Part shown: piece by piece, positions 5,450 to 28,996 of the stretch
How the letters are laid out: every line of letters begins with the position of its first letter
Numbering within the stretch: the first letter of the stretch is position 1
IMG/VR virus record: IMGVR_UViG_2974588491_000001
Coordinates: 314,380 to 378,379 of that record
DNA: 64,000 nucleotides
Source: a virus
Lineage: Duplodnaviria > Heunggongvirae > Uroviricota > Caudoviricetes
Reading direction: 5' to 3' (one strand)
Position numbers and translations under genes: made by a program
Notes under the pieces: generated by a model
Database searches by the model: none
The model's input: only the letters and a program-made list of their open reading frames with translations
What the model was told of the DNA's origin: nothing

Positions 5450-5467
5450 ATTTGACGGAGTGATTAT

Positions 5468-5954: not shown

Positions 5955-6032
5955 TGCGGAGTAGAGCAGTCTGGTTAGCTTGCAAGGCTCATAACCTTGA
6001 GGTCGGTGGTTCAAATCCATCCTCCGCATCCA
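5955..6032 (+). tRNA. second tRNA with CAU anticodon (Met/fMet/Ile2), CCA encoded
   Basis: acceptor stem TGCGGAG/CTCCGCA, anticodon arm caagg-CUCAUAA-ccuug, T-loop TTCAAAT. Confidence 0.7.
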
Positions 6033-6098
6033 ATTATTGAGAATCAAGTAGTAGCAATCGACCACTGTATTAACGCAACTCGATGCTTGATTCGATTA

Positions 6099-6171
6099 GG
6101 GGCTATAGCTCAGTTGGGAGAGCGTCTGCCTTGCACGTAGAAGGTCAACGGTTCGAACCCGTTTAGCTCCA
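6099..6171 (+). tRNA. tRNA-Ala (anticodon UGC)
   Basis: near-identical to E. coli tRNA-Ala(UGC) (GGGGCUAUAGCUCAG...), retains the G3:U70 identity pair; 3' CCA not encoded. Confidence 0.85.
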
Positions 6172-6365
6172 CAAAGTACTATATACTTATCGTCTAAAGT
6201 TTAACTTGCATAACAGACAGCACTTGTTGTAATAGTTGAATAGGATACTGATTCGCTCGCAGGAGGTTTCGGGGATACAAGTGAAAGTCTTGTTGAGTAT
6301 ACCAATTTTAAGTAACACAAAAGTAAGTAACTAAGAAACTCAATCAAAAACCAATGAGGTATATC

Positions 6366-7052
6366 ATGCAAGTAGAATTTAAAAACGCACTTTTCGGTCT
6401 GGAAGATTACGATTTCGCAGTAGTATCTGGTGACACTCTTATCATCGCACTGAAAACTCGCGAAATTCATCTGGAATTCGAATCTGAAGAAGAAGCATTT
6501 GATGCTAAATCAGAACTCGCAGTTGTAATTGAAGCTGCAAAAGCCGATTCCATTTCGATCACTGATGTACTGGAAGAAGCAGCAAGCGTAGTAACTGGTC
6601 TGTTCGGTGGTCTGGTTAGCTCTGTAAAAGCTAAAGCTACTAAAGCATCTTCTACTGTAGAAGCTCGTGCTGCTAAAGTTGTTGCGGATCTGGAAGAAGT
6701 ACTGGATACCGTTGCACGTTCTAAAGCTGAACCACGCAATACCGCTAAAGATTCTGCTGATGCAGAAAGCGTATTCGGTACTACTCGCACTGCACGTAAC
6801 TCTGCTGCTGATACTGTAGTATCTGAACTGTCTGATAATGCACTTCGTGTTGCAATTTCTGACAAAGCTGATCATCTGGTAGAAAACGATACTCGCGTTA
6901 AAGCACTTGTTGCACAGCTTCGCACTTTCCACAGCGATGAAGAAGTTGATGACGTGATTCAGCAACATAAAGACCAGATCTTCCGTATTGCTCGTGCAAA
7001 CGACCATCTGACTGTTAACGAAGTCTTTGTTGAACTGCTTCGCGGTCTGTAA
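6366..7052 (+). CDS. Ala/Glu/Val-rich alpha-helical protein with host-optimal codon usage (likely highly expressed)
   Basis: GAGG RBS; codon usage CTG/CGT/GGT/GAA unlike the AT-rich neighbours; strong terminator downstream. Confidence 0.7.
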   Translation: MQVEFKNALFGLEDYDFAVVSGDTLIIALKTREIHLEFESEEEAFDAKSELAVVIEAAKADSISITDVLEEAASVVTGLFGGLVSSVKAKATKASSTVEARAAKVVADLEEVLDTVARSKAEPRNTAKDSADAESVFGTTRTARNSAADTVVSELSDNALRVAISDKADHLVENDTRVKALVAQLRTFHSDEEVDDVIQQHKDQIFRIARANDHLTVNEVFVELLRGL

Positions 7053-7068
7053 TCTGAATTAAAAATAC

Positions 7069-7094
7069 AAGGCAGCCATTGGCTGCCTTTTTTC
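7069..7094 (+). terminator. rho-independent terminator
   Basis: aaggcagcc-att-ggctgcctt followed by a T-run. Confidence 0.7.
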
Positions 7095-7107
7095 GTTTAA
7101 GGACTAT

Positions 7108-7647
7108 ATGAAAATAACAGAACAATATAGAAGTGTTGGTGTACAAGAGTACTATCAAAATGAAGAAACACAACGCACATATGAAAACCCACACGCTGAA
7201 TTCGTAACCAAAAGCTTCCTGACAGCCTTTCATGAGTACTTTACCGAAGATGCTACAGTACTTGATCTATGCTCCGGTAATGGCATTATAAGCTCTGTAC
7301 TGAAGTCCTGTGGAGTACAGAATATAGAGGGTGCAGACAAATATATGTATGAACGGTACACAGAAGAAACTGGTTTCGTTTGTCATCCATATTCGTTTGA
7401 AGATATAGCAGATTTCAATGTGCAATTCGAGAAGTATTATGATGTTATAGTATGTAGTTATGCATTTGATATTGTACCTGATTCATACAGGAATAAACTT
7501 CTGTACGCATTAAGTACTTATGCTGATGCATTGATCCTGATTAGGCCGAACTCACATATTCTAGAATCCGATATGTGGGAATTAAATTTTCGTACAAAAG
7601 TACATAAAAGCACTACCACTGTATACAAGAAAAAAAGGCACTCATAA
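7108..7647 (+). CDS. class I SAM-dependent methyltransferase-like protein
   Basis: motif I VLDLCSGNG; motif II-like DVIVCSYAF. Confidence 0.55.
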   Translation: MKITEQYRSVGVQEYYQNEETQRTYENPHAEFVTKSFLTAFHEYFTEDATVLDLCSGNGIISSVLKSCGVQNIEGADKYMYERYTEETGFVCHPYSFEDIADFNVQFEKYYDVIVCSYAFDIVPDSYRNKLLYALSTYADALILIRPNSHILESDMWELNFRTKVHKSTTTVYKKKRHS

Positions 7648-7664
7648 AGAGTGCCTTTTGTTTT
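7631..7664. terminator. bidirectional intrinsic terminator between convergent genes
   Basis: aaaggcactc-ataaa-gagtgccttt flanked by A-run and T-run. Confidence 0.6.
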
Positions 7665-8796
7665 ACGCTTTACCTGCAATTACAACTTTACCAGTAAAGT
7701 TATCATTACTGATTAGAGTTATATTGTCAGAATCATCAATTTCAATGGTAATAGCAACAAGTTTAGTTCCATCATACACAGACAAAGACGGTGTTGGTTT
7801 GTTGTGAGTACTGAACGGTATTACCATTTCATATTCACTTCCATTTGCAACCCATACTAATGAAGTACTGTAAACTGTAGTTTGGTCAGTTGGTCCAATA
7901 ATTACAACGTCTAAATCTTGTGCAACATCCTGTGTAATTGTAACGTTACCATTTGCATCCACTGATACATCTGGATTATAAATTACACCATTAGGACTTT
8001 GAATTTGAAGTACTAAGTCAGTACCACGATTATGTTCACTTTCATTCAATACATAACTGAATGTACCATCTCCATTATCAACAAACTGACTTGCTGCTAC
8101 TGGAACATGTGTTGTGAAATCTGAATCTGCACCACTAGGTAATACTTCAAATGGAACAGTTGCAGTATTATAATGTGGTGAAGTAACCGTAATCGTACCC
8201 ATTCCTGGAGAAACGAACTGAACATTATCAAATGTAAAGACACGATTATGTACTGTAGTAGTATACTCAACTCCTTCTGGAGTAGTTAATGTCACAATCA
8301 TACCATCTTCATTTAGAGTTCCACTTGCAGCACTTATTGAACCAGTAACAGTTGTACTGTCAACGGTTACGGTATTAACTACAATAGAACCTAAGTCTGG
8401 AGTTGGAATACTACATTCAGGTGTGTACATATCGAATAGATATATACCATTACTTAATACAACTTTATTATACAAGAAACGGATTACAAATCCGTACTGA
8501 GACATAGAATCATTATAACCACGAACAAAGAATGAGTTTACTGGAATAAGATCCAGCAACTGATCATCTGTTAAACTATAGTCAAGAACTCTATTATTTG
8601 TGTTATAACCAGTTAATTGTACTTTTTGATACACCACTTCTGATACTGGATCAATCAAATCAAATACATTAATAGAACGTTGCTTGTAAATCCTTACATT
8701 TTTCAGCTTAGTTCCATTTTTAAGTAATGCACCATCAACAATAAATCCACATATACCATATGGGTAATCATTTATACCAGCGATAGGTTTAGCCAT
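7663..8796 (-). CDS. beta-rich Thr/Ser/Val/Asn-rich protein, putative virion structural or fibre-like protein
   Basis: 377-aa ORF, lone - strand gene among + strand genes; composition typical of Ig-like or fibre domains. Confidence 0.6.
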   Translation of the reverse strand: MAKPIAGINDYPYGICGFIVDGALLKNGTKLKNVRIYKQRSINVFDLIDPVSEVVYQKVQLTGYNTNNRVLDYSLTDDQLLDLIPVNSFFVRGYNDSMSQYGFVIRFLYNKVVLSNGIYLFDMYTPECSIPTPDLGSIVVNTVTVDSTTVTGSISAASGTLNEDGMIVTLTTPEGVEYTTTVHNRVFTFDNVQFVSPGMGTITVTSPHYNTATVPFEVLPSGADSDFTTHVPVAASQFVDNGDGTFSYVLNESEHNRGTDLVLQIQSPNGVIYNPDVSVDANGNVTITQDVAQDLDVVIIGPTDQTTVYSTSLVWVANGSEYEMVIPFSTHNKPTPSLSVYDGTKLVAITIEIDDSDNITLISNDNFTGKVVIAGKA

Positions 8797-8914
8797 ATAT
8801 CACTCCCTAGTTATTATAAAGTATTTATTTTATATGACCTGTTTTTCTTGACATTTTCACCCCCTTCTAGTACTATAAAAACCAAAGAAAACATGTATTA
8901 ACGACAGATTTTGC

Positions 8915-8943
8915 TTGACAAGACGGCATTTTTTGTTTATAAT
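8915..8943 (+). promoter_or_regulatory. sigma70-type promoter (TTGACA-17-TATAAT)
   Basis: consensus hexamers with 17-bp spacer. Confidence 0.6.
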
Positions 8944-8970
8944 ATATGGACATTAATTGAGGTAACATTT

Positions 8971-9546
8971 ATGACACGTTTGATTATTCGTGAAAACAAA
9001 ATGAAGATTCGTTTGCACCAGGATGAAGCAGAATCTTTCATGGCAAAGGCAGCAGCAAAAGCTGACAAGTACAATAAACTTGCACCAGCAGGAAAGTCGC
9101 CATACGGCTTTAACCACGCACATTCACACTTAGTTGGAATGGCAGCAGAACATGCTTCGTGGATTCTGTTCAATGAGGTTGAGGCTCTGGCGGGTATTAA
9201 CCTAAACATCGATCCTGCGTTTCAGGATGACCGCCGTGAAGGTGAATGCGACATTTACGTAGCAGGTAAACGCATTGAAGTAAAGGGTATTAAGTACGGT
9301 TCTTGGTTACGTTTCGGTCCATGTATCAGTGCACGTCAGTTACCTAAAATTCAAAAGAAAGCTGACATTGTTCTTTGGGCGTTGTATAATGAACGTTGTC
9401 AGGAATTCACTTTCGAGGGTTTCAACTACGTTGATGAGATTGCAACCTTAGAAACTGTTATGACAGGTGCAGAAGGTCGTCCACTGATAGAAAACTATCC
9501 AGTACTACCTATCATCAAACCAATGCAATCGCTTAGTTTACATTAA
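8971..9546 (+). CDS. hypothetical protein, weak PD-(D/E)xK nuclease-like motif (D..EVK)
   Basis: GAGG RBS then ATG in frame with ORF 8911..9546. Confidence 0.55.
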   Translation: MTRLIIRENKMKIRLHQDEAESFMAKAAAKADKYNKLAPAGKSPYGFNHAHSHLVGMAAEHASWILFNEVEALAGINLNIDPAFQDDRREGECDIYVAGKRIEVKGIKYGSWLRFGPCISARQLPKIQKKADIVLWALYNERCQEFTFEGFNYVDEIATLETVMTGAEGRPLIENYPVLPIIKPMQSLSLH

Positions 9547-9557
9547 GAGGTCTTAAA

Positions 9558-9863
9558 ATGAAAGTGTTCGGTATTTTGTTTCTCGCGGTAGTAGCGTATA
9601 TTGCTTTTATTCGTTTCGCAGATGCAAGTACTTTACCAACAAACAAATATGCTTTTTGTTCAGGTTACGCAAGTAAAATGCACGAAGTATATCGTTTGAA
9701 ACATTACCAAAAAATGCAAGAATTTTTCGAAGCACTCATTGGTAACAAAACAGATGAATTTACATCAGAGTACTATCAGTCAGGTTCAGAAGTAGTTAAA
9801 ACTGGTCTTTCCATTAAACTGAACGTCAATGATAAGTGCGAGGTGCTTTTCCATAAAGGGTAA
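9558..9863 (+). CDS. small protein with N-terminal signal or TM segment
   Basis: ORF with GAGG RBS. Confidence 0.5.
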   Translation: MKVFGILFLAVVAYIAFIRFADASTLPTNKYAFCSGYASKMHEVYRLKHYQKMQEFFEALIGNKTDEFTSEYYQSGSEVVKTGLSIKLNVNDKCEVLFHKG

Positions 9864-9866
9864 CAC

Positions 9867-10349
9867 ATGACAGAAGGTATTATATTTTTCTTTGCGTTTC
9901 AGGTTTTATTTGCAATTGCCAGTGGTGGCCTTGCACCTCGAATCATGTACGCATTGACAGTAAGTAATGGGTTCTGGAACTTCTTACAGAACTATGCTTT
10001 ATCTTATCAGGTATCATACGATCAGATACATAGTACTGAGAAGTTTCTACCTGAAGTTAATTCTAAGTTAGAGAAACTTTTAACTTTAGCATTAATTAAT
10101 GAAGCAGGTGTCGGTATAAGTACTGACTATCGCCGTGATAATGGTATAATACTTCGCATTGAAAAACCACATACGTTCACTGGTTCTGGATATGGCAATA
10201 CCGTCCATTTTTATATGGACAATGGTATGATTGATGAAGAAAAATATGCACTATCACCAACTGTTTTTATTCTTGCACAAAAAGTGTACAAGCGTGTACT
10301 TGCCGCTAAAGAGCAGGAAAAAATTGAAAAGAAACGAAGTAAAATCTAA
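9867..10349 (+). CDS. hypothetical protein
   Basis: 160-aa ORF. Confidence 0.55.
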   Translation: MTEGIIFFFAFQVLFAIASGGLAPRIMYALTVSNGFWNFLQNYALSYQVSYDQIHSTEKFLPEVNSKLEKLLTLALINEAGVGISTDYRRDNGIILRIEKPHTFTGSGYGNTVHFYMDNGMIDEEKYALSPTVFILAQKVYKRVLAAKEQEKIEKKRSKI

Positions 10350-10408
10350 TTGACTTCAGTTTTAAATTAAGTATAATATTTTAAAATCAAATTGTGCGAG
10401 GATTTAAT

Positions 10409-10930
10409 ATGTCATCTGTACTAGCAACTAAAATCACCAAAGGTATGATCAATCGTGCTGGTTATATTCCGATTGAAACAACGATGGATAATGGTGGTTT
10501 TCTCAGCATCATGGATGATGACTTTATGTATTATACTTTCAAAGATTGTTTGAAGGTTGACCGTACCGATTTCCACAAATGGGTATGTTATTGGGATTCT
10601 TACCCATTTGCAATTGTCTGTGATGTTAAAGCTGACAAACTCGCAAACGGATATACCAAAGTTGCCATTCTCAATAAACAAATTGTTCCGGTTTCTGAAG
10701 TTGGTGAATTCCCTTCTAAACGTAATATTTGTTTTGGTTCGATGATAAAAGGCAAATTCGTAACCAACAAAGGTGTTGAGCAGTACGTTACTGACAACTT
10801 CGGCAATGTTCAGGTTAGCACACGCACCAATGTAAGTACTGGTAAAAAAGAAAAAACTGTACTTTCAAATGATGAAATCAAAAATCTAAAAGAAGAAATG
10901 CAACGCAATTGGGGTTGTACTCTAAAATAA
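10409..10930 (+). CDS. hypothetical protein
   Basis: GAGGA RBS then ATG in frame with ORF 10394..10930. Confidence 0.55.
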   Translation: MSSVLATKITKGMINRAGYIPIETTMDNGGFLSIMDDDFMYYTFKDCLKVDRTDFHKWVCYWDSYPFAIVCDVKADKLANGYTKVAILNKQIVPVSEVGEFPSKRNICFGSMIKGKFVTNKGVEQYVTDNFGNVQVSTRTNVSTGKKEKTVLSNDEIKNLKEEMQRNWGCTLK

Positions 10931-10931
10931 T

Positions 10932-10962
10932 AAATTCGGGGATTAACTATCCCCGAAACTTT
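10932..10962 (+). terminator. rho-independent terminator
   Basis: cggggat-taacta-tccccg followed by aaactttt. Confidence 0.55.
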
Positions 10963-10974
10963 TAATGGTGAAAT

Positions 10975-11445
10975 ATGAAACGTTCAACTTTTCTTGGTAT
11001 TACCTTAGCATTAATTGCAGTTGAAATTGCATATACTACTGCAAGCCTGAATGAAACATATCAATTCATGAATGGTGTACTACAAAATAAGTACTACGCT
11101 CTGTTTGCAATTTCATATATCGGGTTCGTATTATTCTCAGGATGGTTCTTTACTTTTTCAGTACCAACACTTGAGTATAAACGCCAAGTACATGGGTACT
11201 TTGAAGAAGTATTCGGACAAGAGAAATATAGTTTCCTGTATACTTATCACTTCCTTGCATTCGCGGTAGCAACATTTTATCTCAGTGCCTGGCCGTACTT
11301 TATTATGAGTACTGTTATGTGGCTATTCTGGACATGGGTACGTTCTAAGCAGAATGAATATGCGGAAGAATACGAACTCGAACGTAAGAAGGAAGAAGCT
11401 AAACATAAACCAACTGTAGTACTTGATCGTACTGATTTACTATAA
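10975..11445 (+). CDS. membrane protein
   Basis: multiple hydrophobic helices. Confidence 0.55.
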   Translation: MKRSTFLGITLALIAVEIAYTTASLNETYQFMNGVLQNKYYALFAISYIGFVLFSGWFFTFSVPTLEYKRQVHGYFEEVFGQEKYSFLYTYHFLAFAVATFYLSAWPYFIMSTVMWLFWTWVRSKQNEYAEEYELERKKEEAKHKPTVVLDRTDLL

Positions 11446-11454
11446 GAGGGAACT

Positions 11455-11904
11455 ATGTATTCACAAATGTTAACTAAGTTCTTGTTTGGATTCTTTGCTC
11501 TGTACCTTATTGCATTGTACGGTTCAGTAGCAATAACTTACAAAAGCTTACCACTAATCATTGCTTCACAATGGTATACTTTAGCATCAGTCATTGTAGT
11601 ACTTACCGCATTCTGTGCGTTATGTGCAACAGTTTTAAATGTAGGAATTATTTTTGAAGTTGATAATGATTGTAAACGCTTTAAGCTCAAGATATATGAA
11701 ATACTGAACGATAAAGTTATTAGTCCTGTATGGCATTGGATACTTGCAATCAGTATGATTGGTTTATTCCAAATTGGTCATTACGGTGATTCATTAGTAA
11801 CGCTTTGTTTATTTTCATGTATTCTAACTTTCCGTATCGCACATCAAAGTGTTGTGCGAAAAGCGAAAATACAAGTACTGAACGCAGCTATAACTAAAAA
11901 ATAA
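11455..11904 (+). CDS. membrane protein
   Basis: multiple hydrophobic helices; GAGGGA RBS. Confidence 0.55.
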   Translation: MYSQMLTKFLFGFFALYLIALYGSVAITYKSLPLIIASQWYTLASVIVVLTAFCALCATVLNVGIIFEVDNDCKRFKLKIYEILNDKVISPVWHWILAISMIGLFQIGHYGDSLVTLCLFSCILTFRIAHQSVVRKAKIQVLNAAITKK

Positions 11905-11909
11905 ATCAA

Positions 11910-11948
11910 ATACCAGTTGACTCAACGTGGGTTAACTGGTATACTTTT
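11910..11948 (+). promoter_or_regulatory. terminator hairpin carrying a promoter (TTGACT-17-TATACT), PeSL-like
   Basis: taccagtt...aactggta stem, T-run, -35 inside the stem and -10 just downstream. Confidence 0.5.
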
Positions 11949-11975
11949 CAGTATATTAAGTGATGGAGAAATAAA

Positions 11976-12221
11976 ATGAACCAGCAAGAAATTGTACAAA
12001 GCGTCAAGGAAAAAGAAGTACTGATCAACGATCATCATGTTCGCATCAAAGCGTTGTATGAAGAAATCAATACTGGTCTTCAGCAATCCGGTGGTGTACG
12101 TACTTCAGAAGTAGATGAGAAGTATAAAAAGATCGATGCTGCCTTTGGTGCTAAATCAAAACTCGAAGGTGAAGTTCGTAATCTGAAAAAGCAATTGCTA
12201 GAGATGGTACTGAGTGAATAA
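11976..12221 (+). CDS. hypothetical protein
   Basis: 81-aa ORF with GGAG RBS. Confidence 0.5.
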   Translation: MNQQEIVQSVKEKEVLINDHHVRIKALYEEINTGLQQSGGVRTSEVDEKYKKIDAAFGAKSKLEGEVRNLKKQLLEMVLSE

Positions 12222-12939
12222 ATCAAACATTGAAACCTTGATCTATAATCTCAGTGCAGTGAAGTATCAATTTGCAATTGTATGTGAAACTGCACTAGAC
12301 CAGTTGAGCCATTATTTTTGTACAATTGGTAATGCAATTAACTACGATCCTGTTCGTGGTATGATAGACTGTGATCGTTCTGGTAATTATTTTTGTATTA
12401 TCGAAAATCACATCTTCAGTTTCGATGATATTCAGGCACAACGTAAAAAATCATGCGAAGAATTGGAAGTACAGTACAATCGCTTGAAAGAAATTTTTGG
12501 CGATGAAGTACCTGAAAACATGAAGCGTTTGTACGTTGATGAAATTGAAAAACTGAAAAAACCGTTTGAAGTACTAGACGAATCATACTTTTTCAGTTAT
12601 AATGATATTGCACGTGAGATGATAGATGCCGTGCAAAAACGTTTTGAAGAAGATCGTCATCTGCGTTTACAGATTAACACTCCTGTAATCGATGAACAGT
12701 GCTCTATCATCTTTAAAGTAAAGAATACTGACAATCCACTAATTGTTAAATTGGCTATTACTACGTGTAAAGCTTGGATTGAAGTACTGGAGTATTATGT
12801 ACAAGCTGAATGGTACTTTACTGAAGAAGAAATTCAGAAGTATCAGGGAGCATCGCATTACTTTTCGTTAAGTTACATCAATACATGTATTGATAAATTC
12901 AAACAGATTGTTGAAAACCTGGAGAATCAAAATGCTTAA
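12214..12939 (+). CDS. hypothetical protein
   Basis: 241-aa ORF. Confidence 0.6.
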   Translation: MNKSNIETLIYNLSAVKYQFAIVCETALDQLSHYFCTIGNAINYDPVRGMIDCDRSGNYFCIIENHIFSFDDIQAQRKKSCEELEVQYNRLKEIFGDEVPENMKRLYVDEIEKLKKPFEVLDESYFFSYNDIAREMIDAVQKRFEEDRHLRLQINTPVIDEQCSIIFKVKNTDNPLIVKLAITTCKAWIEVLEYYVQAEWYFTEEEIQKYQGASHYFSLSYINTCIDKFKQIVENLENQNA

Positions 12940-13053
12940 ACCAATTATTCTGCTGATCGTTGTTCTCGGTATTGGTGCTGCTGGTGGTTATACTTATGGC
13001 ACAAAACATCCTACAATGGGTGATTGTGTAAATTCGGTTATTGGGAGTTAAAA

Positions 13054-13488
13054 ATGGAAATCAGTCGTAAATCCTGGCATTATCGCATGACTGCATGGTG
13101 CTGGGATCATTTTGGGAAAACACCATCTAATTCACTGTGTGGTTATTTCTGGCAGATGGTGTTTTCCCCATTTGTAGTAATTGGTATGTATGCTGCAATT
13201 CTGGTCGTAGCACTTATCATGCTAAGTTGGGGTTTGTATTTCTCTGGTGCAATGCTTTGTAATGTTCTGCACTGGATTAATGTACTTCCTGATTCTTTTG
13301 ATATGGTTCCTGGTGTATTCAACTGGCGACACATGGTAGTTTCAGTACTGATTACATCTGGTATCGCTGCAAAAGTTGCATATTCAATCTATAAAGAAGA
13401 TCATCCAAACAAAGAGCCAAACGTTATATTCGAATTTATTAAAGCGAAGAAACGTAAAATCTGCCCACTGATCGAATTTAAAGATTAA
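13054..13488 (+). CDS. membrane protein
   Basis: GGGAG RBS then ATG in frame with ORF 13024..13488. Confidence 0.5.
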   Translation: MEISRKSWHYRMTAWCWDHFGKTPSNSLCGYFWQMVFSPFVVIGMYAAILVVALIMLSWGLYFSGAMLCNVLHWINVLPDSFDMVPGVFNWRHMVVSVLITSGIAAKVAYSIYKEDHPNKEPNVIFEFIKAKKRKICPLIEFKD

Positions 13489-13494
13489 GTTTTA

Positions 13495-13530
13495 ATGTAC
13501 TACCCATTTAGAGTAGTACATTTTATTTTA
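13495..13530 (+). terminator. rho-independent terminator
   Basis: atgtactac...tagtacat hairpin followed by a T-run. Confidence 0.5.
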
Positions 13531-13541
13531 AGGAAGTTATT

Positions 13542-14069
13542 ATGTTCAAAGTTGGTAATTGGATAGTTCTTACGCTCGAAGATGCATTTAACAGGTGTCA
13601 TGCACAAAATAGGGATATTACTAATATCATTCGTGATACTCCCATTAAAGTACTGCGACTTGATAGTGATGGTGATATACGTGAATGGTGTACTCCTAGT
13701 GGTGTACGTCACTCCATGACAATTACCACACGTGAACAACTTTTTTTCACGTTACATGATAGCAGTTCAGAATATGGTTCTTTCAAAATTATCCTGACTT
13801 ATATCGAAGATGGTAAAACGATTGAAGAAGAAGGTGTAACATTTGTCTCTATGGATCACAATTCCATTGAGTACAAATACAATCGTAAGAAACTTGGCTT
13901 TATCAAATATAAAGGTGAAGTTAAGTTAAACATCGATGAACTAAAACAAATTACGATTAGTACTCCTGAAAACGAACGAGTATATCATATCGAAAATGGC
14001 GTGATTGTGCGTGAACATATTATGTATGATCATGAACGTAAATTTAAACGTTTCAAGCTGGGGAATTAA
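13542..14069 (+). CDS. hypothetical protein
   Basis: 175-aa ORF with AGGAAG RBS. Confidence 0.55.
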   Translation: MFKVGNWIVLTLEDAFNRCHAQNRDITNIIRDTPIKVLRLDSDGDIREWCTPSGVRHSMTITTREQLFFTLHDSSSEYGSFKIILTYIEDGKTIEEEGVTFVSMDHNSIEYKYNRKKLGFIKYKGEVKLNIDELKQITISTPENERVYHIENGVIVREHIMYDHERKFKRFKLGN

Positions 14070-14070
14070 A

Positions 14071-14394
14071 ATGCAAAACAATAATACGATTGGAACACCA
14101 CTGTGGATGCGAAGTCCAATGCATGAGTACTATGTAGTACAGAATGGTGCTAAGTACATTGCTATCGACCAACATAGTGGTGGTTATCCATATGACACTA
14201 ATTTTTCTTCTGCTGAACGTTATTCAACATTAGAACTAGCAGTACAATCAATGAAACGTAATTCAGGTACTGCTGTTGTTCATTGTAAAATTTACGGTGA
14301 AGTTGTTCAGCAATGTGAAATTGATCACCAGTTGCGTTTATCTGCAATTGCAAAACTTACACCTGAAGAAATTCGTGCATTGGGGTTAGGTTAA
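14071..14394 (+). CDS. hypothetical protein
   Basis: ATG after GGGGAA, in frame with ORF 14005..14394. Confidence 0.5.
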   Translation: MQNNNTIGTPLWMRSPMHEYYVVQNGAKYIAIDQHSGGYPYDTNFSSAERYSTLELAVQSMKRNSGTAVVHCKIYGEVVQQCEIDHQLRLSAIAKLTPEEIRALGLG

Positions 14395-14777
14395 TGTTGG
14401 GTTCATTGGGATTGTTCTGGAGTGAAGAAGATGGTACTATGATTCTTTCTCCATGTGATGAATCATTCCAGGAACCTAAAGTGGCGTATTTTTACATTCA
14501 AGTTGAAACTGAATCGGAATATAAGCATATTCGCATAGACAAGTGGAATACTCCTGTGCGAACCAATGACCATTTCGAATGTACCCGCTTCGATACGTAT
14601 GAAGAAGCGTTGGAAGTAGTAAAGACATTTAACCTTGTCAGTACTTCTCATGTACATAAGATTCGTCTTGCTCGTGTAACTGGTACGTACATGTGGGATG
14701 ATATAGTGTACGCTCATTGCTCCTTGAAAAATCTAGGAAATGGTAAATTTGGCCTTGCAATCAGCGAACGCATGTGA
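14394..14777 (+). CDS. hypothetical protein
   Basis: TTAATG coupling. Confidence 0.5.
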   Translation: MLGSLGLFWSEEDGTMILSPCDESFQEPKVAYFYIQVETESEYKHIRIDKWNTPVRTNDHFECTRFDTYEEALEVVKTFNLVSTSHVHKIRLARVTGTYMWDDIVYAHCSLKNLGNGKFGLAISERM

Positions 14778-14834
14778 TATATTATTTTACATCGAGGGGA
14801 GATAACCTTCCCTCCCTATTAAGTGAGAATTCAA

Positions 14835-15026
14835 ATGACAGCATATGAAATGTGTATTGCGAACATTGCTCGTAAAGTCCGTTCTACCAACCATAACACC
14901 GCTGAAGGTGTACAAATGCCATCTGCATTTGAGTATTCAGTCGGTATTGCTGCTGGCTTTTGTAAAGATCCGAAAGAAGTTGTGATGGACATTTTCAACT
15001 TCAGCGAAGATAATCATAATTCCTGA
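14835..15026 (+). CDS. small hypothetical protein
   Basis: ATG 9 nt after the conserved TTAAGTGAGA motif. Confidence 0.4.
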   Translation: MTAYEMCIANIARKVRSTNHNTAEGVQMPSAFEYSVGIAAGFCKDPKEVVMDIFNFSEDNHNS

Positions 15027-15058
15027 AGGTACATTCTAGAGAAATTTAAAAAAAATCC

Positions 15059-15086
15059 TTGACAGTACTAAACAATGTGCTATACT
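15059..15086 (+). promoter_or_regulatory. sigma70-type promoter (TTGACA-16-TATACT) at the start of the 1.2-kb non-coding block
   Basis: hexamer match. Confidence 0.5.
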
Positions 15087-16099
15087 GATAAGGTTCAAGC
15101 GGAAAGACAAGTTTTAAAAATCTTCTCGCTAAAAAGTTTAAAAAAGTACTTGACAACCACTTCGTTAGATAGTACAATGTAGTCTCTGATAAGGAACAAA
15201 GTGTTCCGAAGCTGATAAAGAGTTCAGCGTGTTAAATCTAAAAAGAGGATTGAACGCAAATGTAACAGTTAAATATTAAATTTTATAATATTGATGACTA
15301 GGAACTTTTTTGATTTTTAAATCTGGGCGAATGGTTCCCCCGATAACCGGAAAACTTTGAGGATCGCAATCATGAAGTAATTAACACTAATTGAATCTGA
15401 TCATTTAAAATATTGCCGAGTTATTAGTGGTACGGGGCGGTGTCCAGGCAAAAAACGCCGCTACCTATTATCCACGAATGAATGACATTTTGCAAAGAAC
15501 GAGTACTGCGTAAAGAGTACAAGCTGAGAGGAAACCGATACTCTTGAAATTATCAGTTATCGGCAGAGAATCTATGAAGGCTGTTCTTGTCTGACTTCGC
15601 CGTAGAAAAGTAACGGTACAAGGGTTATGTGAGATGTGTGAATCTTGCTGTAATGATGGATAACGAGTTAAGGCGTTTGATGGCTTACAGTCGGGTGATC
15701 CGGTCACAAATTAGGAGTAGAAACACAACTAACTGATCATGGTTAGATGAAGCTAAGGCAGAGCTTTCTCGTAAGTATTTGGTACGGGTACGGTGAGATG
15801 CATACCGTGAGTGTTTCAAACATGTGCGAACTGTATAGCGTAGATACAGTAACTCTTTCGAGAGTTGTTTGATTAACCGCATATGTCGAACTTTCCGAAC
15901 AAAGTTCAAAACAGAATTGAAGTACTACGAAGTTGCGTGTTATAATCAGTTCGGTGAGGACTAACACGCAGCGATTTAATTACTGTACTGAATTGTATCA
16001 TTCACAGTTTCGAGTTTGTGATGCAATAAGGTGATAGTAATAAGTTCGAGCAAAACATAGGTTGTCTGAGCAGTGAAGCTGTTAACTTCATGATAAGCC

Positions 16100-16129
16100 T
16101 TGACAATTAGGGAATAGCCGACTATAATG
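16100..16129 (+). promoter_or_regulatory. sigma70-type promoter (TTGACA-18-TATAAT) upstream of the XRE gene
   Basis: hexamer match. Confidence 0.55.
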
Positions 16130-16251
16130 TGTTTATAGATTCCCCACTACCTGTAAATGGTTAGCCCAAGTGCAGTAAAGATGTTTCGGTACGGGAGTTC
16201 ACACAAAAAGGACTCCCACCTTTTAAGTTAGCTGATTAAGTGAGAATAATA

Positions 16252-16482
16252 ATGAAAAACGCACTCAAAACCCAATTGTTCAAAATGATTAAGAGCACTG
16301 CATCTGAACGCAATATGTCTCAGCGTGACCTGGGGAAAGCGTTGCAGGTTTCTCAACCACGTATTTCTAACCTTCTTGACGAGCGTCAAGATCTGTTCAG
16401 TATCGATAAACTGCTTGAATTCGTTGATACGTTAGGGTATCATGTAGAAATCAAAGCAGTGGAAAAGGAGACAGTACAATGA
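16252..16482 (+). CDS. XRE-family helix-turn-helix DNA-binding protein
   Basis: SQRDLGKALQVSQPRISNLL HTH; TTAAGTGAGA pre-start motif. Confidence 0.65.
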   Translation: MKNALKTQLFKMIKSTASERNMSQRDLGKALQVSQPRISNLLDERQDLFSIDKLLEFVDTLGYHVEIKAVEKETVQ

Positions 16483-16628
16483 AAGAATATATTGTAGAGT
16501 ACTTCCAGAAAGGCGGTTCTAACCCGTTAGCTACTCGCCAGTTCGCACATAACGAAGCAATGGCTCGTACTAATGCGAAGAACGAAAAAGGCCAGGATAT
16601 TATTATCCGCAGCGTAAAACCTGCATAA
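16479..16628 (+). CDS. small protein (49 aa)
   Basis: ATGA-coupled; host-like codons; terminator follows. Confidence 0.4.
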   Translation: MKEYIVEYFQKGGSNPLATRQFAHNEAMARTNAKNEKGQDIIIRSVKPA

Positions 16629-16654
16629 CAAAAGCCAGTTACCCCACATTCAGA

Positions 16655-16682
16655 AAAGCCAGCTTAGCTCTGGCTTTTTTTA
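16655..16682 (+). terminator. rho-independent terminator
   Basis: aaagccagc-ttagct-ctggcttt followed by a T-run. Confidence 0.65.
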
Positions 16683-16723
16683 TTGGATAATTTTAGTTGT
16701 TGCTATTTTGTACGGAGATAAAA

Positions 16724-17716
16724 GTGAGTCCAAAAAAATTAAACTTAGATGATATTCAGGAAGATATCCTTGACGAATGTTTTGAAAAAGAAGAATTAAC
16801 TTTAGAATCACTTGTGGTAGATGATTCTGACGAGGATACAACTTCTGATGCTGATGATGTACATCACGGTTTAACAATGGATCAGATTAAAACACAAATT
16901 AAAGCTGACCAGTACATTAGCAACGAAGATCTAGTACGAAAAGTACAATCCGGCGTAGATGTAGAAGAATCAAAGAAACTACTTGTTATGTTCAACAGTG
17001 GTTTAGTGTACAACGAAGCGAAAAATTGTACTTGTAATATTCCATTCCAGGATAAAGTACAATATGGTTTCGAAGGTTTAATGAAAGCTATCTATGGTTT
17101 CAATACAACTTTCCGTACAATGTTTAGTACTTATGCAACAACTACGATCCGTCAACATATGTATCGTAACGGCAATAACGATGTTCGTATGGTAGCTCTA
17201 CCTGAACATCTGTCGGTTAACAACATTCGTATACAATCTTTTATCGAACGTTATATGAATGATAATACTGGCTATCCAACTAATGAGCAAATTGCTGAAA
17301 GTACTGGAATTGATATTCGTTCAGTAAAACGTATCATGAACTATAACAGTAATACTTTTAGTATTGATACGCCAATGAACAAAGGCGACGAAGGTTCAGA
17401 ACAAACACTAAAAGATATTATCCCTGGTGAAAGTGCTGATTATGTGGTTGATGAACGTTGTGTTGCAAAAGACTTTGTAAGTACAATGGAAGAAATCATG
17501 AATGAACTTGAAGAACATGAACGTGTTCTACTTGGATTAGTTCACGGTTTAGATGGTTATCGTATCCATACGTTTGATGAAATTATTAACACTGGATACA
17601 TTGATGGTAAAGGAAAGTTCGTAACTTCTAAAGCTACACTATCTCGTCGTTACAATGATATGATGGATAAAGTACGTCGTATTGTTGAACGTAAACAAAT
17701 CAACTTTGATCTTTAA
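16724..17716 (+). CDS. sigma-70 family RNA polymerase sigma factor (phage-encoded)
   Basis: region 2 FSTYATTTIRQ (cf. RpoD FSTYATWWIRQ); region-4-like HTH near the C-terminus; GGAGA RBS then GTG. Confidence 0.8.
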   Translation: MSPKKLNLDDIQEDILDECFEKEELTLESLVVDDSDEDTTSDADDVHHGLTMDQIKTQIKADQYISNEDLVRKVQSGVDVEESKKLLVMFNSGLVYNEAKNCTCNIPFQDKVQYGFEGLMKAIYGFNTTFRTMFSTYATTTIRQHMYRNGNNDVRMVALPEHLSVNNIRIQSFIERYMNDNTGYPTNEQIAESTGIDIRSVKRIMNYNSNTFSIDTPMNKGDEGSEQTLKDIIPGESADYVVDERCVAKDFVSTMEEIMNELEEHERVLLGLVHGLDGYRIHTFDEIINTGYIDGKGKFVTSKATLSRRYNDMMDKVRRIVERKQINFDL

Positions 17717-17728
17717 AGGTACTATTTA

Positions 17729-18439
17729 ATGACACATAAAGATAAACGTTCAGTTAGTACTGATGCACTTGATACGCTCGGTACTATCCATACTCGCGAA
17801 GAACATCGGGATGCAATTCACTTAGGTGTAGAACCAGTTATTGCTGGTGAAGATATTGCTGTAGGTGCAAACATTGGTATTGGTAAAGATGGTTTTGCAT
17901 ATGCTACCGATTACCGTTCTGATATTAAAGCAGTTGGTATTGCAGATCCATTTCTTGCGAATCGTATTCAAAAAGGTGAATCTTTCTGGCTCGTAGTATA
18001 TCCACGTAAGATTACTTCGCTACGCCATGTTTGGACTCATCCTGATTTTGATTCTGAAGAAGATCAGAAAGTACTTGACATTGCAGAAGTCTCAAGCGAT
18101 GATTTAATGGTAGAGATCCAACGCCGTTTAGCTACTAATAACATTGTACAAACGGTTCAGGAGCCGCAGCAGAAAGCCGCTGACAGCGATGAAAAGGCTA
18201 AGGCATGGGCTTGGATTAACGAATACGCAGACGGCTTAGGGCTTGATACAGACGAACTGATGGACTACGCCGATATGTGGGTTTCCTCTGAACGTCGCGG
18301 AACCTGGGGTGATTACCTTTGCAAAGGTGGTGATCTCGAAGGTGAATATGTCTCTGACGAATTTTGGGATAACTACGATATTGTCCGTGATGAAAGTACT
18401 GATACCGAACGTGGTTCCTTCTTCACGTGTTCTTGTTAA
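17729..18439 (+). CDS. acidic hypothetical protein ending FFTCSC
   Basis: 236-aa ORF immediately after the sigma gene. Confidence 0.6.
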   Translation: MTHKDKRSVSTDALDTLGTIHTREEHRDAIHLGVEPVIAGEDIAVGANIGIGKDGFAYATDYRSDIKAVGIADPFLANRIQKGESFWLVVYPRKITSLRHVWTHPDFDSEEDQKVLDIAEVSSDDLMVEIQRRLATNNIVQTVQEPQQKAADSDEKAKAWAWINEYADGLGLDTDELMDYADMWVSSERRGTWGDYLCKGGDLEGEYVSDEFWDNYDIVRDESTDTERGSFFTCSC

Positions 18440-18447
18440 GGTGTTAA

Positions 18448-18639
18448 ATGAAAGAAGAACACAAAGGAATCATTTCTGTTGGTAAAATTTTAAATCGTAA
18501 TCTGTTTGGTTTAAAAGGAAGTCGTCAGGGTTTTGGTAGTTTAGGTTTAGAGAATTTCAAAACTGAAACTATTGTTGATACTACAAAGATGACACCAGAA
18601 GAAAAGAAAGAATATTTGAAGAATTTCAACAAACAATAA
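18448..18639 (+). CDS. small hypothetical protein
   Basis: 63-aa ORF. Confidence 0.4.
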   Translation: MKEEHKGIISVGKILNRNLFGLKGSRQGFGSLGLENFKTETIVDTTKMTPEEKKEYLKNFNKQ

Positions 18640-18645
18640 TTCATA

Positions 18646-18690
18646 GGGTTGACTTCGGTCAGCCCTTTATTTTAATTAAATTTTATAATT
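18646..18690 (+). promoter_or_regulatory. PeSL-like cassette (GGGTTGACTTCGGTCAGCCC hairpin, T-run, -10)
   Basis: UUCG-tetraloop hairpin containing the -35 TTGACT. Confidence 0.55.
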
Positions 18691-18693
18691 ATT

Positions 18694-19668
18694 ATGGTTG
18701 CTAAGTTAACACAAAAAGAAGTTGAAAAGAAAGTCCAAAATAAATGCAAAAAACTGAATTATAAAGTTGAAAAGTTTGTATATACAACTGCTAAAAAAAC
18801 TAAACTATTACTTACATGCGATAATGGACATACATGGAATAGTACTTCGGTTGAAAACTTTTTAAGACTTTCTACTGGATGCCCCAAATGCAGTGGTACT
18901 AAGAAGCTGTCTCAGACTGAAGCAGAAGAAAATGTCAAATTAAAATGTTTAGAACTTAACTATACATGTGAACCATTCGATTACATATCTTCTAGAAAAA
19001 CTTTATTGACACTGACTTGTAATAACGGGCATACATGGAATACTACTACATATCACAAATTACTACAGGCAAACATAAATTATGGTTGTTGTAAAAAATG
19101 TGGTTCAATGAAATCTTCTGAAAAAATGAGGTTTGATAAAAATGATGTTCTACAAAAAATTAATTTAAGGTGTAAAGAATTAAATTATAAATGTGGTGAA
19201 TTTGAATACATTAGTAGTGTTAAAACTAAACTTCCATTAACGTGCAATAAAGGACATTCATGGAATACTACTATTTGTAGAGATTTTTTAAATGGTTCAT
19301 TATGTCCTATATGTAAAGGGCATTCACAAAAGATTGCATACATTAATTTAATAAGTGATGGTGATATTTCTATAGGATTAAAATATGGAATTGAAAGCAC
19401 TAAAGGTAGGAGATGTAAACAACAAAATTACAGTAGTTCTTTTAACATAAAAAGGATCAAAAGTTTTGAATTCGAAACTGTCGATCTTTGCAAAAATGCC
19501 GAAAGCGAATGTAAAAAAATGTTCCAAGCAGAAAACATACGTCTTATTAAGAAAAAAGGAATTTTTACAAAAAAAGAATTACCTGATGGCTATACTGAAA
19601 CTACTTATATTAAAAATATAGACAAAATAATAGAAATTTATAAAAAATACGGCGGTGTTGAAATATGA
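18694..19668 (+). CDS. protein with three tandem ~70-aa repeats, each (L/F)TC(D/N)NGH(T/S)WN...C(P/K)(K/I)C
   Basis: internal triplication visible in the translation; Cys spacing suggests zinc-ribbon units. Confidence 0.6.
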   Translation: MVAKLTQKEVEKKVQNKCKKLNYKVEKFVYTTAKKTKLLLTCDNGHTWNSTSVENFLRLSTGCPKCSGTKKLSQTEAEENVKLKCLELNYTCEPFDYISSRKTLLTLTCNNGHTWNTTTYHKLLQANINYGCCKKCGSMKSSEKMRFDKNDVLQKINLRCKELNYKCGEFEYISSVKTKLPLTCNKGHSWNTTICRDFLNGSLCPICKGHSQKIAYINLISDGDISIGLKYGIESTKGRRCKQQNYSSSFNIKRIKSFEFETVDLCKNAESECKKMFQAENIRLIKKKGIFTKKELPDGYTETTYIKNIDKIIEIYKKYGGVEI

Positions 19669-19723: not shown

Positions 19724-19756
19724 ATATTGACTTCGGTCAGCCCTTTTTGTTATAAT
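19724..19756 (+). promoter_or_regulatory. degenerate PeSL (TTGACTTCGGTCAGCCC, T-run, TATAAT)
   Basis: 18-bp spacer promoter. Confidence 0.5.
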
Positions 19757-20080: not shown

Positions 20081-20255
20081 TATGAAAGATGAAAATGTTA
20101 AGAAAGGTTTAGTAGTTTCCTATAGTGTTGTTACTAAAATGAATCCTATTGAAACAAAAGTAGAGACGCTACTCTTTGAAGATATTGAAGAAGGTCGTGA
20201 GTTCGCAAAGAACCACACTACTATCAGTAAAGAAATTGTTCAGTTCGTTAAATGA
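20070..20255 (+). CDS. small hypothetical protein
   Basis: 61-aa ORF. Confidence 0.4.
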
Positions 20256-20257
20256 AA

Positions 20258-20293
20258 AAAGGGTTGACTTCGGTCAGCCCTTTTTTGTATAAT
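20258..20293 (+). promoter_or_regulatory. PeSL cassette (hairpin/terminator + TTGACT-18-TATAAT)
   Basis: GGGTTGACTTCGGTCAGCCC TTTTTTG TATAAT. Confidence 0.65.
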
Positions 20294-21004: not shown

Positions 21005-21014
21005 TTTTAAGAAA

Positions 21015-21049
21015 AGGGTTGACTTCGGTCAGCCCTTTTTGCTATACTC
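21015..21049 (+). promoter_or_regulatory. PeSL cassette
   Basis: GGGTTGACTTCGGTCAGCCC TTTTTGC TATACT. Confidence 0.6.
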
Positions 21050-21895: not shown

Positions 21896-22569
21896 TTAAA
21901 TGAAACCACGGATTTTTTTATGGTATAATCATATAGACAATCCTGCTTGATAGGGAGAGAAATCTTCCTAATGATTGAATCCCTACTTCGATGAAAATGT
22001 AATTGGAGAGTTGAGAAGTTCAGGCAGTTCGGAGAGCAAAAGAAACCCGTTAGGAGATGGCATAGTTTGTACCACCCACGGCAATGCGGCTCTATAAAGA
22101 AGTACATCTAATCGTTACCAGTACTTCCTCGATAGACATATAAGTGCAACCTTACCAAAAACGATAAGGGAGAATATGCACCAATTTTGTACAATATAGA
22201 TCCGTCCAAAATTTGTGAATCATATTCAAGTACTTTGTTTGATTGTATAGACAAGTATTAAGTGAGCTAAGACCTCGACCGTTGTTAGAACTGAAATAGG
22301 AAGAAACAGGACAACCCGCTTCCGTGCTGAAAAGTAATTTTCAATACAATTGCCGACGACTATCATCGTCAGTTTTCATCCTCCTGCGGGGGGATGAAAT
22401 TGCCTCTACAAATCTCGTCAGTAATAAATGTGTTGAACAGTACAACGATTGAATTTTAAATATGATTTTCTTGCAGCGAAGCGTAAGAAAATCCTTGACT
22501 TGCTTCAGCAAGGCGAGTACACTACTCGAATTGAAGCATAAACAAATCATAAAATATGAGGTACATCTG

Positions 22570-23373: not shown

Positions 23374-23382
23374 AAAATACAT

Positions 23383-23410
23383 TGACGTGGCACATTTTTT
23401 GTGCCATAAT
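23383..23410 (+). promoter_or_regulatory. promoter with hairpin in the spacer (TTGACG...CATAAT)
   Basis: gtggcacattttttgtgccat stem-loop between -35 and -10. Confidence 0.45.
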
Positions 23411-28956: not shown

Positions 28957-28962
28957 CCAAAA

Positions 28963-28996
28963 AGGGGTTGACTTCGGTCAGCCCCTTTGCTATTAT
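28963..28996 (+). promoter_or_regulatory. PeSL cassette
   Basis: GGGGTTGACTTCGGTCAGCCCC TTTGC TATTAT. Confidence 0.6.

Follow-up and report, generated by a model that had tools for sequence, protein, structure and literature searches.

About two dozen short cassettes, each combining an RNA hairpin with a host-type promoter, are found in the 64,000-nt stretch of DNA analysed here (the window), and we consider it likely that they are put to dual use – as a terminator or attenuator and as a σ70 promoter – while additionally serving as homology for recombination. As judged by megablast, the window is 100% identical to positions 314380–378379 of the record of Pectobacterium phage vB_PcaM_CBB (KU574722), i.e. 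it is the right end of this 378-kb jumbo phage with its 22.5-kb terminal repeat included. Comparison with the fully assembled record shows that the 22,456-bp direct terminal repeat at record positions 1–22456 recurs without a difference at window positions 41545–64000, which are thus its right copy. CBB is a RaK2-like jumbo myovirus of the genus Mimasvirus (family unassigned) and not one of the RB49-like T4-type phages referred to in the original prediction, which was drawn from the sequence of the same DNA; the portal and capsid genes of CBB are described in the CBB paper as distant relatives of the T4 superfamily. The predicted cassettes themselves are real and lie far above chance expectation: 22 are complete, all of them on the + (coding) strand, versus approximately one expected by chance.

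Anatomy and placement of the cassettes

The layout of the cassette runs from an A-tract through the outer stem, TTGAC, the loop, GTYRG and the complement of the outer stem to a T-tract and the −10 box. The TTGAC of the −35 element constitutes the inner 5′ arm of a 10–15-bp hairpin, that is, the −35 lies inside the stem just as had been proposed, and the −10 box follows 16–18 nt downstream, a slightly wider range than the predicted 17–18 bp. Nearly all copies have an A-tract of 3–6 nt abutting the stem on its 5′ side, and TG precedes the −10 box in many. The promoter/terminator scanner detected a σ70-type promoter at every copy: with spacers of 16–18 nt, the promoter score is at least 9/12 in all 22 complete copies, and five, exact matches to TTGACA-17-TATAAT, score 12/12. 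The UUCG tetraloop, presented originally as part of the consensus, is indeed the commonest loop but is not universal (it is present in 6 of the 22 complete copies and, among the incomplete ones, in the 18645 hairpin and the 19724 half copy). [quoted passage not shown] Runs of T5–T6 follow the stem at 18645, 20255, 21011, 56713 and 61198 (the T5 at 21011 and 61198 was read by eye, because outer G·U pairs shift the reference point of the automated T count). In several copies the U-tract is short or interrupted, e.g. CCCCUAAG at 60346, and in the AGTAC subfamily it is UUUAUAAU.

Searching the window with a 22-nt core and allowing up to 3 mismatches yielded 5 matches, versus none in 100 shuffles. 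A structural rule that required TTGAC to be part of the 5′ arm of an unbroken stem (7 bp or more) and TAnnnT to lie 15–19 nt downstream picked out 17 sites on the + strand of the window and none on the − strand, as compared to 0.86 on average and 4 at most in 200 dinucleotide shuffles with both strands pooled. When a general σ70 definition that allows for −35 variants was applied, the −35 was found in a hairpin arm at 22 promoter-like sites on the + strand versus none on the − strand.

By their outer stems, 10 complete copies belong to a G-rich subfamily (GGGG/CCCC, with GAGG, GGAG and AAGG variants); all the sites listed in this and the next two paragraphs are on the + strand. The flagged cassette (20255–20293, AAAAAAGGGTTGACTTCGGTCAGCCCTTTTTTGTATAAT) has a 14-bp stem, a UUCG loop, a T6 run and the promoter TTGACT-18-TATAAT, folds at −20 kcal/mol (z = −5.4) and features in the CBB paper as the terminator Torf518 only. 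The copy at 21011–21048 (GGG/CCC stem, UUCG, TTGACT-18-TATACT) is similarly listed there only as Torf520, while the one at 57305–57340 (GGAG/CTCC stem, TTGACA-17-TATACT) is listed only as the promoter Porf_41. Three further copies are located at 28961–28996 (GGGG/CCCC stem, UUCG, TTGACT-17-TATTAT; −20.5 kcal/mol), 60346–60380 (GGGG stem; probably a weak terminator given its poor U-tract, CCCCUAAG) and 61198–61236 (GGG stem, UUAG loop, T5, TTGACT-18-TATACT). The remaining four are predicted to drive the leader RNAs described below: a long form at 45300–45335 (GAGG/CCTC stem, UUCG) and short forms at 48033–48067 (GGGG stem, UUCG), 49957–49991 (GGGG stem, AUAU loop) and 56713–56748 (AAGG/CCTT stem, UUCG, T6; Torf39 only in the CBB paper).

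The AGTAC/GTACT subfamily comprises 11 copies. Nine of these were absent from the original list, and all nine have AGTAC...GTACT stems. They are found at 46500–46537 (−35 at 46510, TTGCAA), 47035–47070 (−35 at 47042, TTGCAA; the hairpin is the same as that of its ortholog at 8298 in the related phage GAP32), 47536–47572 (−35 at 47544; TTGACA-17-TATAAT, 12/12; −15.6 kcal/mol, z = −5.7), 48794–48829 (−35 at 48801, TTTACT), 49051–49084 (−35 at 49056, TTGCAA), 50481–50517 (−35 at 50489; 12/12 promoter; the crossover site of a 392-bp CBB/GAP32 indel), 53607–53643 (−35 at 53615; hairpin identical to that of the 50481 copy), 54663–54699 (−35 at 54671; 12/12 promoter) and 59384–59419 (−35 at 59391, TGGACA). 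The other two, at 57614–57649 and 58929–58964 (the latter −16.9 kcal/mol, z = −6.4), have a UCCG loop and are each predicted to drive a short-form leader; in the GAP32 ortholog of the former the stem is swapped to AGGC/GCCT. Finally, one complete copy is atypical: at 11910–11945 the stem is ATACCAGTTGACTCA-acg-TGGGTTAACTGGTAT and the promoter TTGACT-17-TATACT, annotated in the CBB paper as the promoter Porf_503 only.

All 18 positions listed originally contain the features described for them, but three of the entries are not complete cassettes. What had been called a clear copy at 18646 is a hairpin only (18645–18666, AGGGTTGAC-ttcg-GTCAGCCCT with TTATTTT after it; given as the terminator Torf515 in the CBB paper), with no −10 at 15–19 nt. 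The supposedly clear copy at 19724 (19724–19756) retains an intact promoter, TTGACT-18-TATAAT, but is a half copy that has lost its outer 5′ arm, with ATAT replacing GGG (covariance-model E = 0.044). The ‘variant’ at 61630 corresponds to a hairpin at 61639–61676 (TTCGAGTACT-(16-nt loop)-AGTACTCGAA, then ATTTTC), in which TTGACA is present, partly in the loop; as it lacks a −10, it is not a composite cassette. Two more sites belong to other subclasses of the promoter-early stem-loop (PeSL) element. At 23382–23410, the hairpin GTGGCACA-ttttt-TGTGCCAT lies in the spacer, as described, and overlaps the −10 (TTGACG-17-CATAAT; Porf_525 in the CBB paper). The site at 63575–63613 is likewise as described, a promoter (TTGACA-18-CATAAT; Torf52 in the CBB paper) whose −10 sits in the loop of GGCCGCTGT-cataatg-ACGGCGGCT.

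Across the unique genome (355,923 bp), a general scan returned 25 matches on the + strand and two weak ones on the − strand. Eighteen of the + strand matches lie in the terminal repeat (record positions 3762–19663), four at record positions 326296–343347, and three, all atypical, in the other ~316 kb. Mapping with a covariance model, a check proposed along with the original prediction, agreed with this distribution: the model, built from an alignment of 33 copies and therefore matched by its member sequences by construction, gave E < 1e-6 only in the same two clusters, and elsewhere picked up ordinary terminators at E of at least 0.02. Both clusters consist of short hypothetical ORFs, which the CBB paper regards as early genes. 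Within the terminal repeat the cassettes are intergenic, between an upstream stop codon and a downstream SD and ATG; the −35 sits 13–22 nt past the upstream stop codon in every copy, and the next ATG is 54–73 nt from the −35 in six copies and is reached via a leader (158–277 nt) in six others. One −35 is located 8 nt ahead of the annotated CBB_575 start. Going by CDS positions, the modules delimited by cassettes hold roughly 1–3 genes each and not strictly the single gene that had been proposed.

Selection on the hairpin and a proposed mechanism

The cassette RNAs fold at −13 to −20.5 kcal/mol, with z-scores of −3.9 to −6.4, and the complementary strand folds worse. For a set of 65 copies from CBB, GAP32, Erwinia phage pEa_SNUABM_49 and Xanthomonas phage XbC2, the mean folding energy is −14.95 kcal/mol for the + strand RNA versus −9.44 kcal/mol for its complement, the former being more stable in 60 of the 65, although part of this asymmetry stems from the way in which copies were selected, G·U pairs having been accepted on whichever strand was scanned. 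Even so, the reverse strand, scanned in the same way, yielded none. Among the 756 stem pairs of the 65 copies there are 106 G·U pairs, while A·C or C·A accounts for at most 6 of the 49 stem-ending mismatches; fully Watson-Crick stems are seen in 5 of the 65, so there are few true DNA palindromes.

A formal covariation count was performed on 33 copies from 7 phages that have a 4-nt loop and share one register. As the pairing registers differ between subfamilies, a single bracket string over a MAFFT alignment of 54 distinct copies was unusable, and the remaining copies were analysed in register by script. In the 33-copy set, 94.9% of cells are paired, as compared to 25–61% in slid controls, and changes on both sides of a pair affect 30 cells versus 4.6 ± 4.0 in shuffles, none of 500 shuffles reaching 30. 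TTGAC is invariant in 33 out of 33 copies. Opposite its first three bases, variation is confined to U·G/U-A and G-C/G·U, that is, to wobble-compatible transitions; the partners of its A and C are invariant, and the four outer pairs display true compensatory changes. Between CBB and GAP32 orthologs, all 15 substitutions at positions paired in both keep the pairing, and 7 of these are double; the 11910 copy and its GAP32 ortholog are distinguished by 3 double compensatory changes. Taken together, the covariation, the asymmetry between G·U and A·C and the strand-specific folding argue for RNA-level selection of the hairpin in sense transcripts. The evidence favours an RNA hairpin, one arm of which is kept fixed by σ70 recognition, and the combination of an invariant −35 arm with a wobble-tolerant partner arm makes the cassette a clear case of joint selection at the DNA and RNA levels.

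The same repeat could also be viewed as a DNA operator: an inverted repeat around the −35 to which a dimeric regulator – CBB_511, an HTH protein, or some other factor of the phage – would bind to shut off early promoters. Its centre coincides with the −35, so that a protein bound there would obstruct σ70, and genes for an HTH regulator and a phage sigma factor are present nearby, at window positions 16252–17716. However, the outer arms (GGGG, GAGG, GGAG, AAGG, AGTAC, AGGC) differ wholly yet stay complementary, whereas a protein-binding site would conserve sequence and not pairing. Both the excess of G·U over A·C with so few true palindromes and the placement of the cassettes right after stop codons further count against an operator, which we regard as improbable.

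Selection of the structure at the RNA level would equally be expected of RNA processing sites, at which the polymerase would not stop but long polycistronic transcripts of the early genes would be cleaved, be it by RNase III, by RNase E or by a RegB-like phage nuclease, and the dense early operons of T4-like phages do undergo processing. Stems of 10–15 bp are, however, short for RNase III, and the T-tract right after the stem, along with the ARNold calls, fits intrinsic termination. Furthermore, the RB49 stem-loop cuts lacZ expression about as much as the strong rrnB T1 terminator does (PMC2839356). We therefore consider it very improbable that the cassettes are processing sites.

In the favoured dual-use reading, a cassette of ~35–40 bp would be read twice, as RNA and as double-stranded DNA, both termination and initiation in CBB being deduced here from the sequence. 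Read as RNA, the transcript arriving from the upstream gene would fold into the 10–15-bp hairpin, made up of the A-tract, a GC-rich or AGUAC stem, the inner UUGAC:GUYRG and a tetraloop that is often UUCG, followed by the U-rich tract; hairpin and U-rich tract together would act as an intrinsic terminator or attenuator and would leave the 3′ end protected. Read as DNA, the inner 5′ arm would serve as the −35 and the T-tract plus the 3′ arm as the 16–18-bp spacer leading to the −10, with the upstream A-tract resembling an UP element, and the host σ70 RNA polymerase would restart transcription for the next gene. Small early genes would thus be converted into insulated units, each with its own promoter, and the near-identical cassettes would offer portable homology for adding, deleting or swapping gene modules. 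The strength of termination probably varies among copies. The T5–T6 copies (18645, 20255, 21011, 56713 and 61198) should be strong terminators, while those with the tract UUUAUAAU or CUAAG are predicted to be weak, and some copies may attenuate weakly; pairing of the A-tract with the U-tract might lower termination.

Leader RNAs and the AGTACT excess

Six of the cassettes (45300, 48033, 49957, 56713, 57614 and 58929) lead not directly into a gene but into a conserved non-coding leader, which is followed by a second σ70-like promoter with a AAAAAGTAC upstream tract. There are about 32 such leaders in four phages. In-register scripting revealed a 5′ hairpin with a purine-rich loop, for which ~10 different pairs of arms, all clearly complementary, occur among the leaders; RNAalifold applied to a MAFFT alignment of the 32 leaders recovered only a weak third helix, the registers differing between subfamilies. 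The three long forms of CBB (~110 nt) adopt three-hairpin folds with energies of −37 to −50 kcal/mol, and the alignment of nine long-form sequences from four phages contains 24 consensus pairs, 9 of which show compensatory double changes. The elements at window positions 42534–42640, 45344–45450 and 62366–62475 may be discrete small RNAs or 5′ leaders. Homologs of the leader are restricted to RaK2-like phages and are mostly unannotated, and in CBB the leader RNA is confined to the terminal repeat. An Rfam search of window positions 41000–64000 (E ≤ 1) gave no match to the leader, only sub-threshold miRNA-like matches to long hairpins. Two abundant non-coding RNAs were detected by RNA-seq in the terminal repeat of PA5oct, a distant relative that can serve as an analogy only.

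A possible, if doubtful, reading of these observations is that the leaders represent a previously undescribed family of structured leader RNAs, with a long form and truncated 5′-leader forms, and that their array would act as a terminator/antiterminator network for very early genes. The put RNAs of HK022 modify the transcribing polymerase for terminator read-through. Like the put RNAs and 5′-terminal stabiliser hairpins, the leaders are small multi-hairpin RNAs located immediately downstream of early promoters; no sequence or Rfam match was found, and the likeness to antitermination is a lead only. By analogy with HK022, the leader RNAs could modify the polymerase so that it reads through downstream cassette hairpins. 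Alternatively, they could regulate one another by antisense pairing, since there is complementarity between the short leaders and the long form's 3′ arm.

The hexamer AGTACT occurs 1,092 times in the genome versus ~103 expected (~10-fold), and 143 times in the terminal repeat versus 6.5 expected. By composition it ranks first among hexamers; its occurrences are scattered over the entire genome, and densities are similar in relatives. In the literature we found nothing on an AGTACT excess in phages, and we found no explanation for it. Both the cassette-driven structured RNAs and the AGTACT excess are targets for follow-up.

Recombination, earlier annotation and relation to known PeSLs

A role for the cassettes in recombination had also been proposed, to be checked by comparing modules with a related phage. 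The comparison with GAP32 bears this out in one clean case, a 392-bp indel with both ends inside identical cassettes, by which CBB lacks GAP32_018 and one cassette that GAP32 has. The upstream flank of the CBB cassette at 50481 matches GAP32 up to the cassette at 11183 (99.5%), the match of the downstream flank starts again past the next GAP32 cassette, at 11575 (95.5%), and the switch between the two falls within 50 nt over which none of the three cassette copies differs. Two genes specific to CBB, CBB_565 and CBB_566 (window positions 47104–47529), are flanked by the cassettes at 47035 and 47536, and the orthologs of GAP32_007 and GAP32_008 are found in swapped order beside the cassette at 45300. 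While 15 of 38 HSP ends fall within 40 nt of a cassette, versus ~10% by a rough estimate of cassette coverage, this enrichment is suggestive but confounded, as any indel the size of a gene has to have its ends between genes, and we do not rely on it.

Many near-identical copies, including the identical hairpins at 50481 and 53607, would also be left by an autonomous miniature mobile element of the MITE/REP type, spread by transposition and not by homologous recombination. However, apart from the hairpin itself no terminal inverted repeats were seen, nor any target-site duplications or associated transposase; all copies share the orientation of the genes and keep a set position with respect to stop and start codons; and the sole resolved event is a homologous crossover within cassettes. 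Transposition is therefore a very unlikely source of the copies.

The CBB paper predicts 18 RpoD-like promoters and 74 terminators genome-wide. At the sites considered here its promoters are Porf_41, Porf_503 and Porf_525 and its terminators Torf39, Torf515, Torf518, Torf520 and Torf52, with ARNold terminator calls at five cassette sites, four of them among the T5–T6 copies. No site is called composite, and PeSLs go unmentioned. The GenBank record KU574722 contains no promoter or terminator features, and in the GAP32 record orthologous sites are variously a terminator, a stem_loop or a promoter. While the CBB and GAP32 annotations thus label several sites as terminators or stem-loops only, the least likely explanation is that the cassettes are ordinary intrinsic terminators or 3′ stabilisers with incidental promoter-like hexamers, given that TTGAC does not vary in 33 of 33 copies while 3 of its 5 pairing-partner positions do, that a −10 lies at 16–18 nt in 22 copies, five with 12/12 matches, that the combination of hairpin and −10 is expected 0.86 times by chance, and that ordinary CBB terminators elsewhere lack TTGAC. 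If the cassettes are read as terminator and promoter in one, the promoter numbers are understated (18 genome-wide versus 22 hairpin-embedded ones in the window alone) because sites were annotated as one signal and never both, which also hides how the early region is built.

PeSLs were defined by Arbiol et al. (2010) in the coliphages RB49 and phi1, where promoter and terminator activity as well as mini-circles were shown experimentally; of the five subclasses one has the stem-loop overlapping the −35, and hairpins in the spacer or over the −10 are published subclasses too (PMC2839356). Comeau, Arbiol and Krisch (2014) extended PeSLs to T4/PST and KVP40/nt-1, giving for nt-1 the consensus A3-4 G3 – loop – C3 T3-4 with the promoter TTGYVH-N17-TAWWAT (PMC4122927). 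When a 55-nt cassette was used as a blastn query, 178 phage records were matched, with 6–11 places each in RaK2, K64-1, PBECO4 and G17, 7 in KVP40 and 6 in nt-1, and with further matches in Aeromonas T4-likes. Direct reading reveals that the elements of nt-1, KVP40 and RaK2 are nearly identical to the CBB cassette in both sequence and layout; compare AAAAGGGTTGAC-atat-GTCAGCCCTTTTTTGTATTCT in nt-1 and AAAAAGGGTTGAC-tacg-GTCAGCCCTTTCTTGTATTAT in KVP40 with AAAAAAGGGTTGAC-ttcg-GTCAGCCCTTTTTTGTATAAT in CBB.

Like the nt-1/KVP40 PeSLs, the CBB cassettes are intergenic, lie amid small variable genes and are associated with indels (PMC4122927). They differ in that the phage is a Mimasvirus and not a member of the Straboviridae, in that 18 of the 22 copies lie within a 22.5-kb direct terminal repeat, in the presence of the second stem subfamily, AGTAC...GTACT, and in that six copies are predicted to drive a structured non-coding leader and not a gene. 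With the RB49/phi1 PeSLs they share an AT-rich upstream region and a σ70-type early promoter fused to a GGGG...CCCC stem-loop between small ORFs, as well as recombination between elements that results in indels (PMC2839356). In RB49/phi1 the stem lies mostly in the spacer separating the −35 from the −10 or over the −10, whereas in CBB it overlaps the −35, and activities that were shown by experiment in the former are predicted in the latter. Like an ordinary terminator followed by a separate early promoter, the cassettes place a GC-rich hairpin and a U-tract after the stop codon and a σ70 promoter before the next gene. Unlike in that arrangement, however, the CBB signals share nucleotides – the −35 is the inner stem and the U-tract is part of the spacer – and the T-run is thus limited to about 3–7 nt and one hairpin arm is fixed.

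The originally proposed reading of the cassettes as PeSL-like terminator-promoters is therefore well matched, with a layout that fits the published definition and a sequence close to the nt-1/KVP40 elements. By these sequence comparisons the CBB cassettes are the same type of element as the published nt-1/KVP40 PeSL, in another phage lineage. The elements were originally described in T4-like myoviruses, to which CBB does not belong; we take this as an extension of the PeSL host range and not as failed membership. In the literature we found neither a report of PeSLs in RaK2-like jumbo phages nor a transcript map for CBB or other RaK2-like phages.

For engineering, the cassettes would be compact insulator-plus-promoter parts. 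Furthermore, they widen the range of PeSLs from T4-like phages (RB49/phi1, T4/PST and KVP40/nt-1) to RaK2-like ones (CBB, GAP32, RaK2, Eneladusvirus and XbC2), so that the same ~35-nt design, near-identical in sequence, is common to distantly related large myoviruses.

Gene content next to the cassettes

To the 5' side of the cassette (a PeSL-like element in which the inner 5' arm of an RNA hairpin is the -35 box, with a -10 downstream) at window position 20255 lies CBB_518 (20082-20255), for which the annotation gives no homolog. The 200 nt preceding this cassette share 81.5% identity with GAP32_496 of the RaK2-like phage GAP32 (positions 12121-12304 of L007, a piece of that phage's record), and GAP32 carries an additional gene, GAP32_497, between a cassette-like sequence (338295-338343) and denV. 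At the cassette at 45300, gene order is swapped: as judged by comparing window 44495-45285 with positions 5732-6530 of a second GAP32 piece, L006, the homolog of GAP32_008 precedes that of GAP32_007 in CBB, while GAP32 has 007 and then 008, and the junction of the swap adjoins the cassette. A complete cassette, AAAATGGTTGAC-ttgg-GTCAGCCATTTT with TTGACT-17-TATTGT (L007 22250-22300; GAP32 record ~348,250-348,300), falls within the annotated HNH endonuclease CDS GAP32_516 (347844-348623), which suggests that this CDS is either a wrong call or a fusion of two units.

Other promoters and the AGTACT hexamer

Two long stretches of the window, 15027-16251 and 21896-22569, carry no annotated genes. 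The former holds several strong sigma70-like promoters (15059, 15150 and, with a 12/12 score, 16100); the genes for an HTH regulator and a phage sigma factor come shortly 3' of them. Outside the window, at approximately record 288,285-288,330 (~23905-23950 of L005, a piece of the CBB record), a 19-bp hairpin, TATGCCACAAAGTTTTTGA-aacaa-TCAAAGATTTTGTGGTATA, holds a TTGAAA-18-TATAAT promoter, with tRNA-Arg (record 288346) just 3' of it; this is a different, AT-rich type of hairpin-embedded promoter.

The palindrome AGTACT is the top hexamer of CBB by composition, ~10-fold in excess over the whole genome (1,092 observed vs 103 expected) and densest in the terminal repeat (window 41545-64000; 143 vs 6.5). 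One subfamily of cassette stems is built of it; it also lies just 5' of the -35 in non-hairpin promoters and near +1 in many promoters. Its density is similar in GAP32, Erwinia phage pEa_SNUABM_49 and Xanthomonas phage XbC2. A literature search for this excess turned up no report and no explanation.

Leader RNAs and tandem promoters

Directly 3' of early promoters, mostly hairpin cassettes, we observed a structured RNA family that carries no annotation. Its long form (42534-42640, 45344-45450 and 62366-62475) folds into three hairpins within ~110 nt (-37 to -50 kcal/mol), and 9 of its 24 pairs show compensatory double changes (RNAalifold; nine sequences from four phages). Homologs were found only in RaK2-like jumbo phages, and Rfam gave no match. 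In the short form (~48076-48120, ~49994-50038, ~56757-56800, ~57658-57700 and ~58973-59017), the 5' leader is truncated and followed by a second promoter.

These second, sigma70-like promoters lie ~60-200 nt 3' of the leader-driving cassette and ahead of the annotated gene, inside the spacers 48068-48206, 49992-50239, 56749-56946, 57650-57778 and 58965-59127; they typically take the form TTGCAA-N16-17-TATAAT, with an A-rich AAAAAGTAC tract upstream. With promoters in tandem ahead of them, these genes may each have two transcription starts, yielding 5' UTRs very unlike each other.
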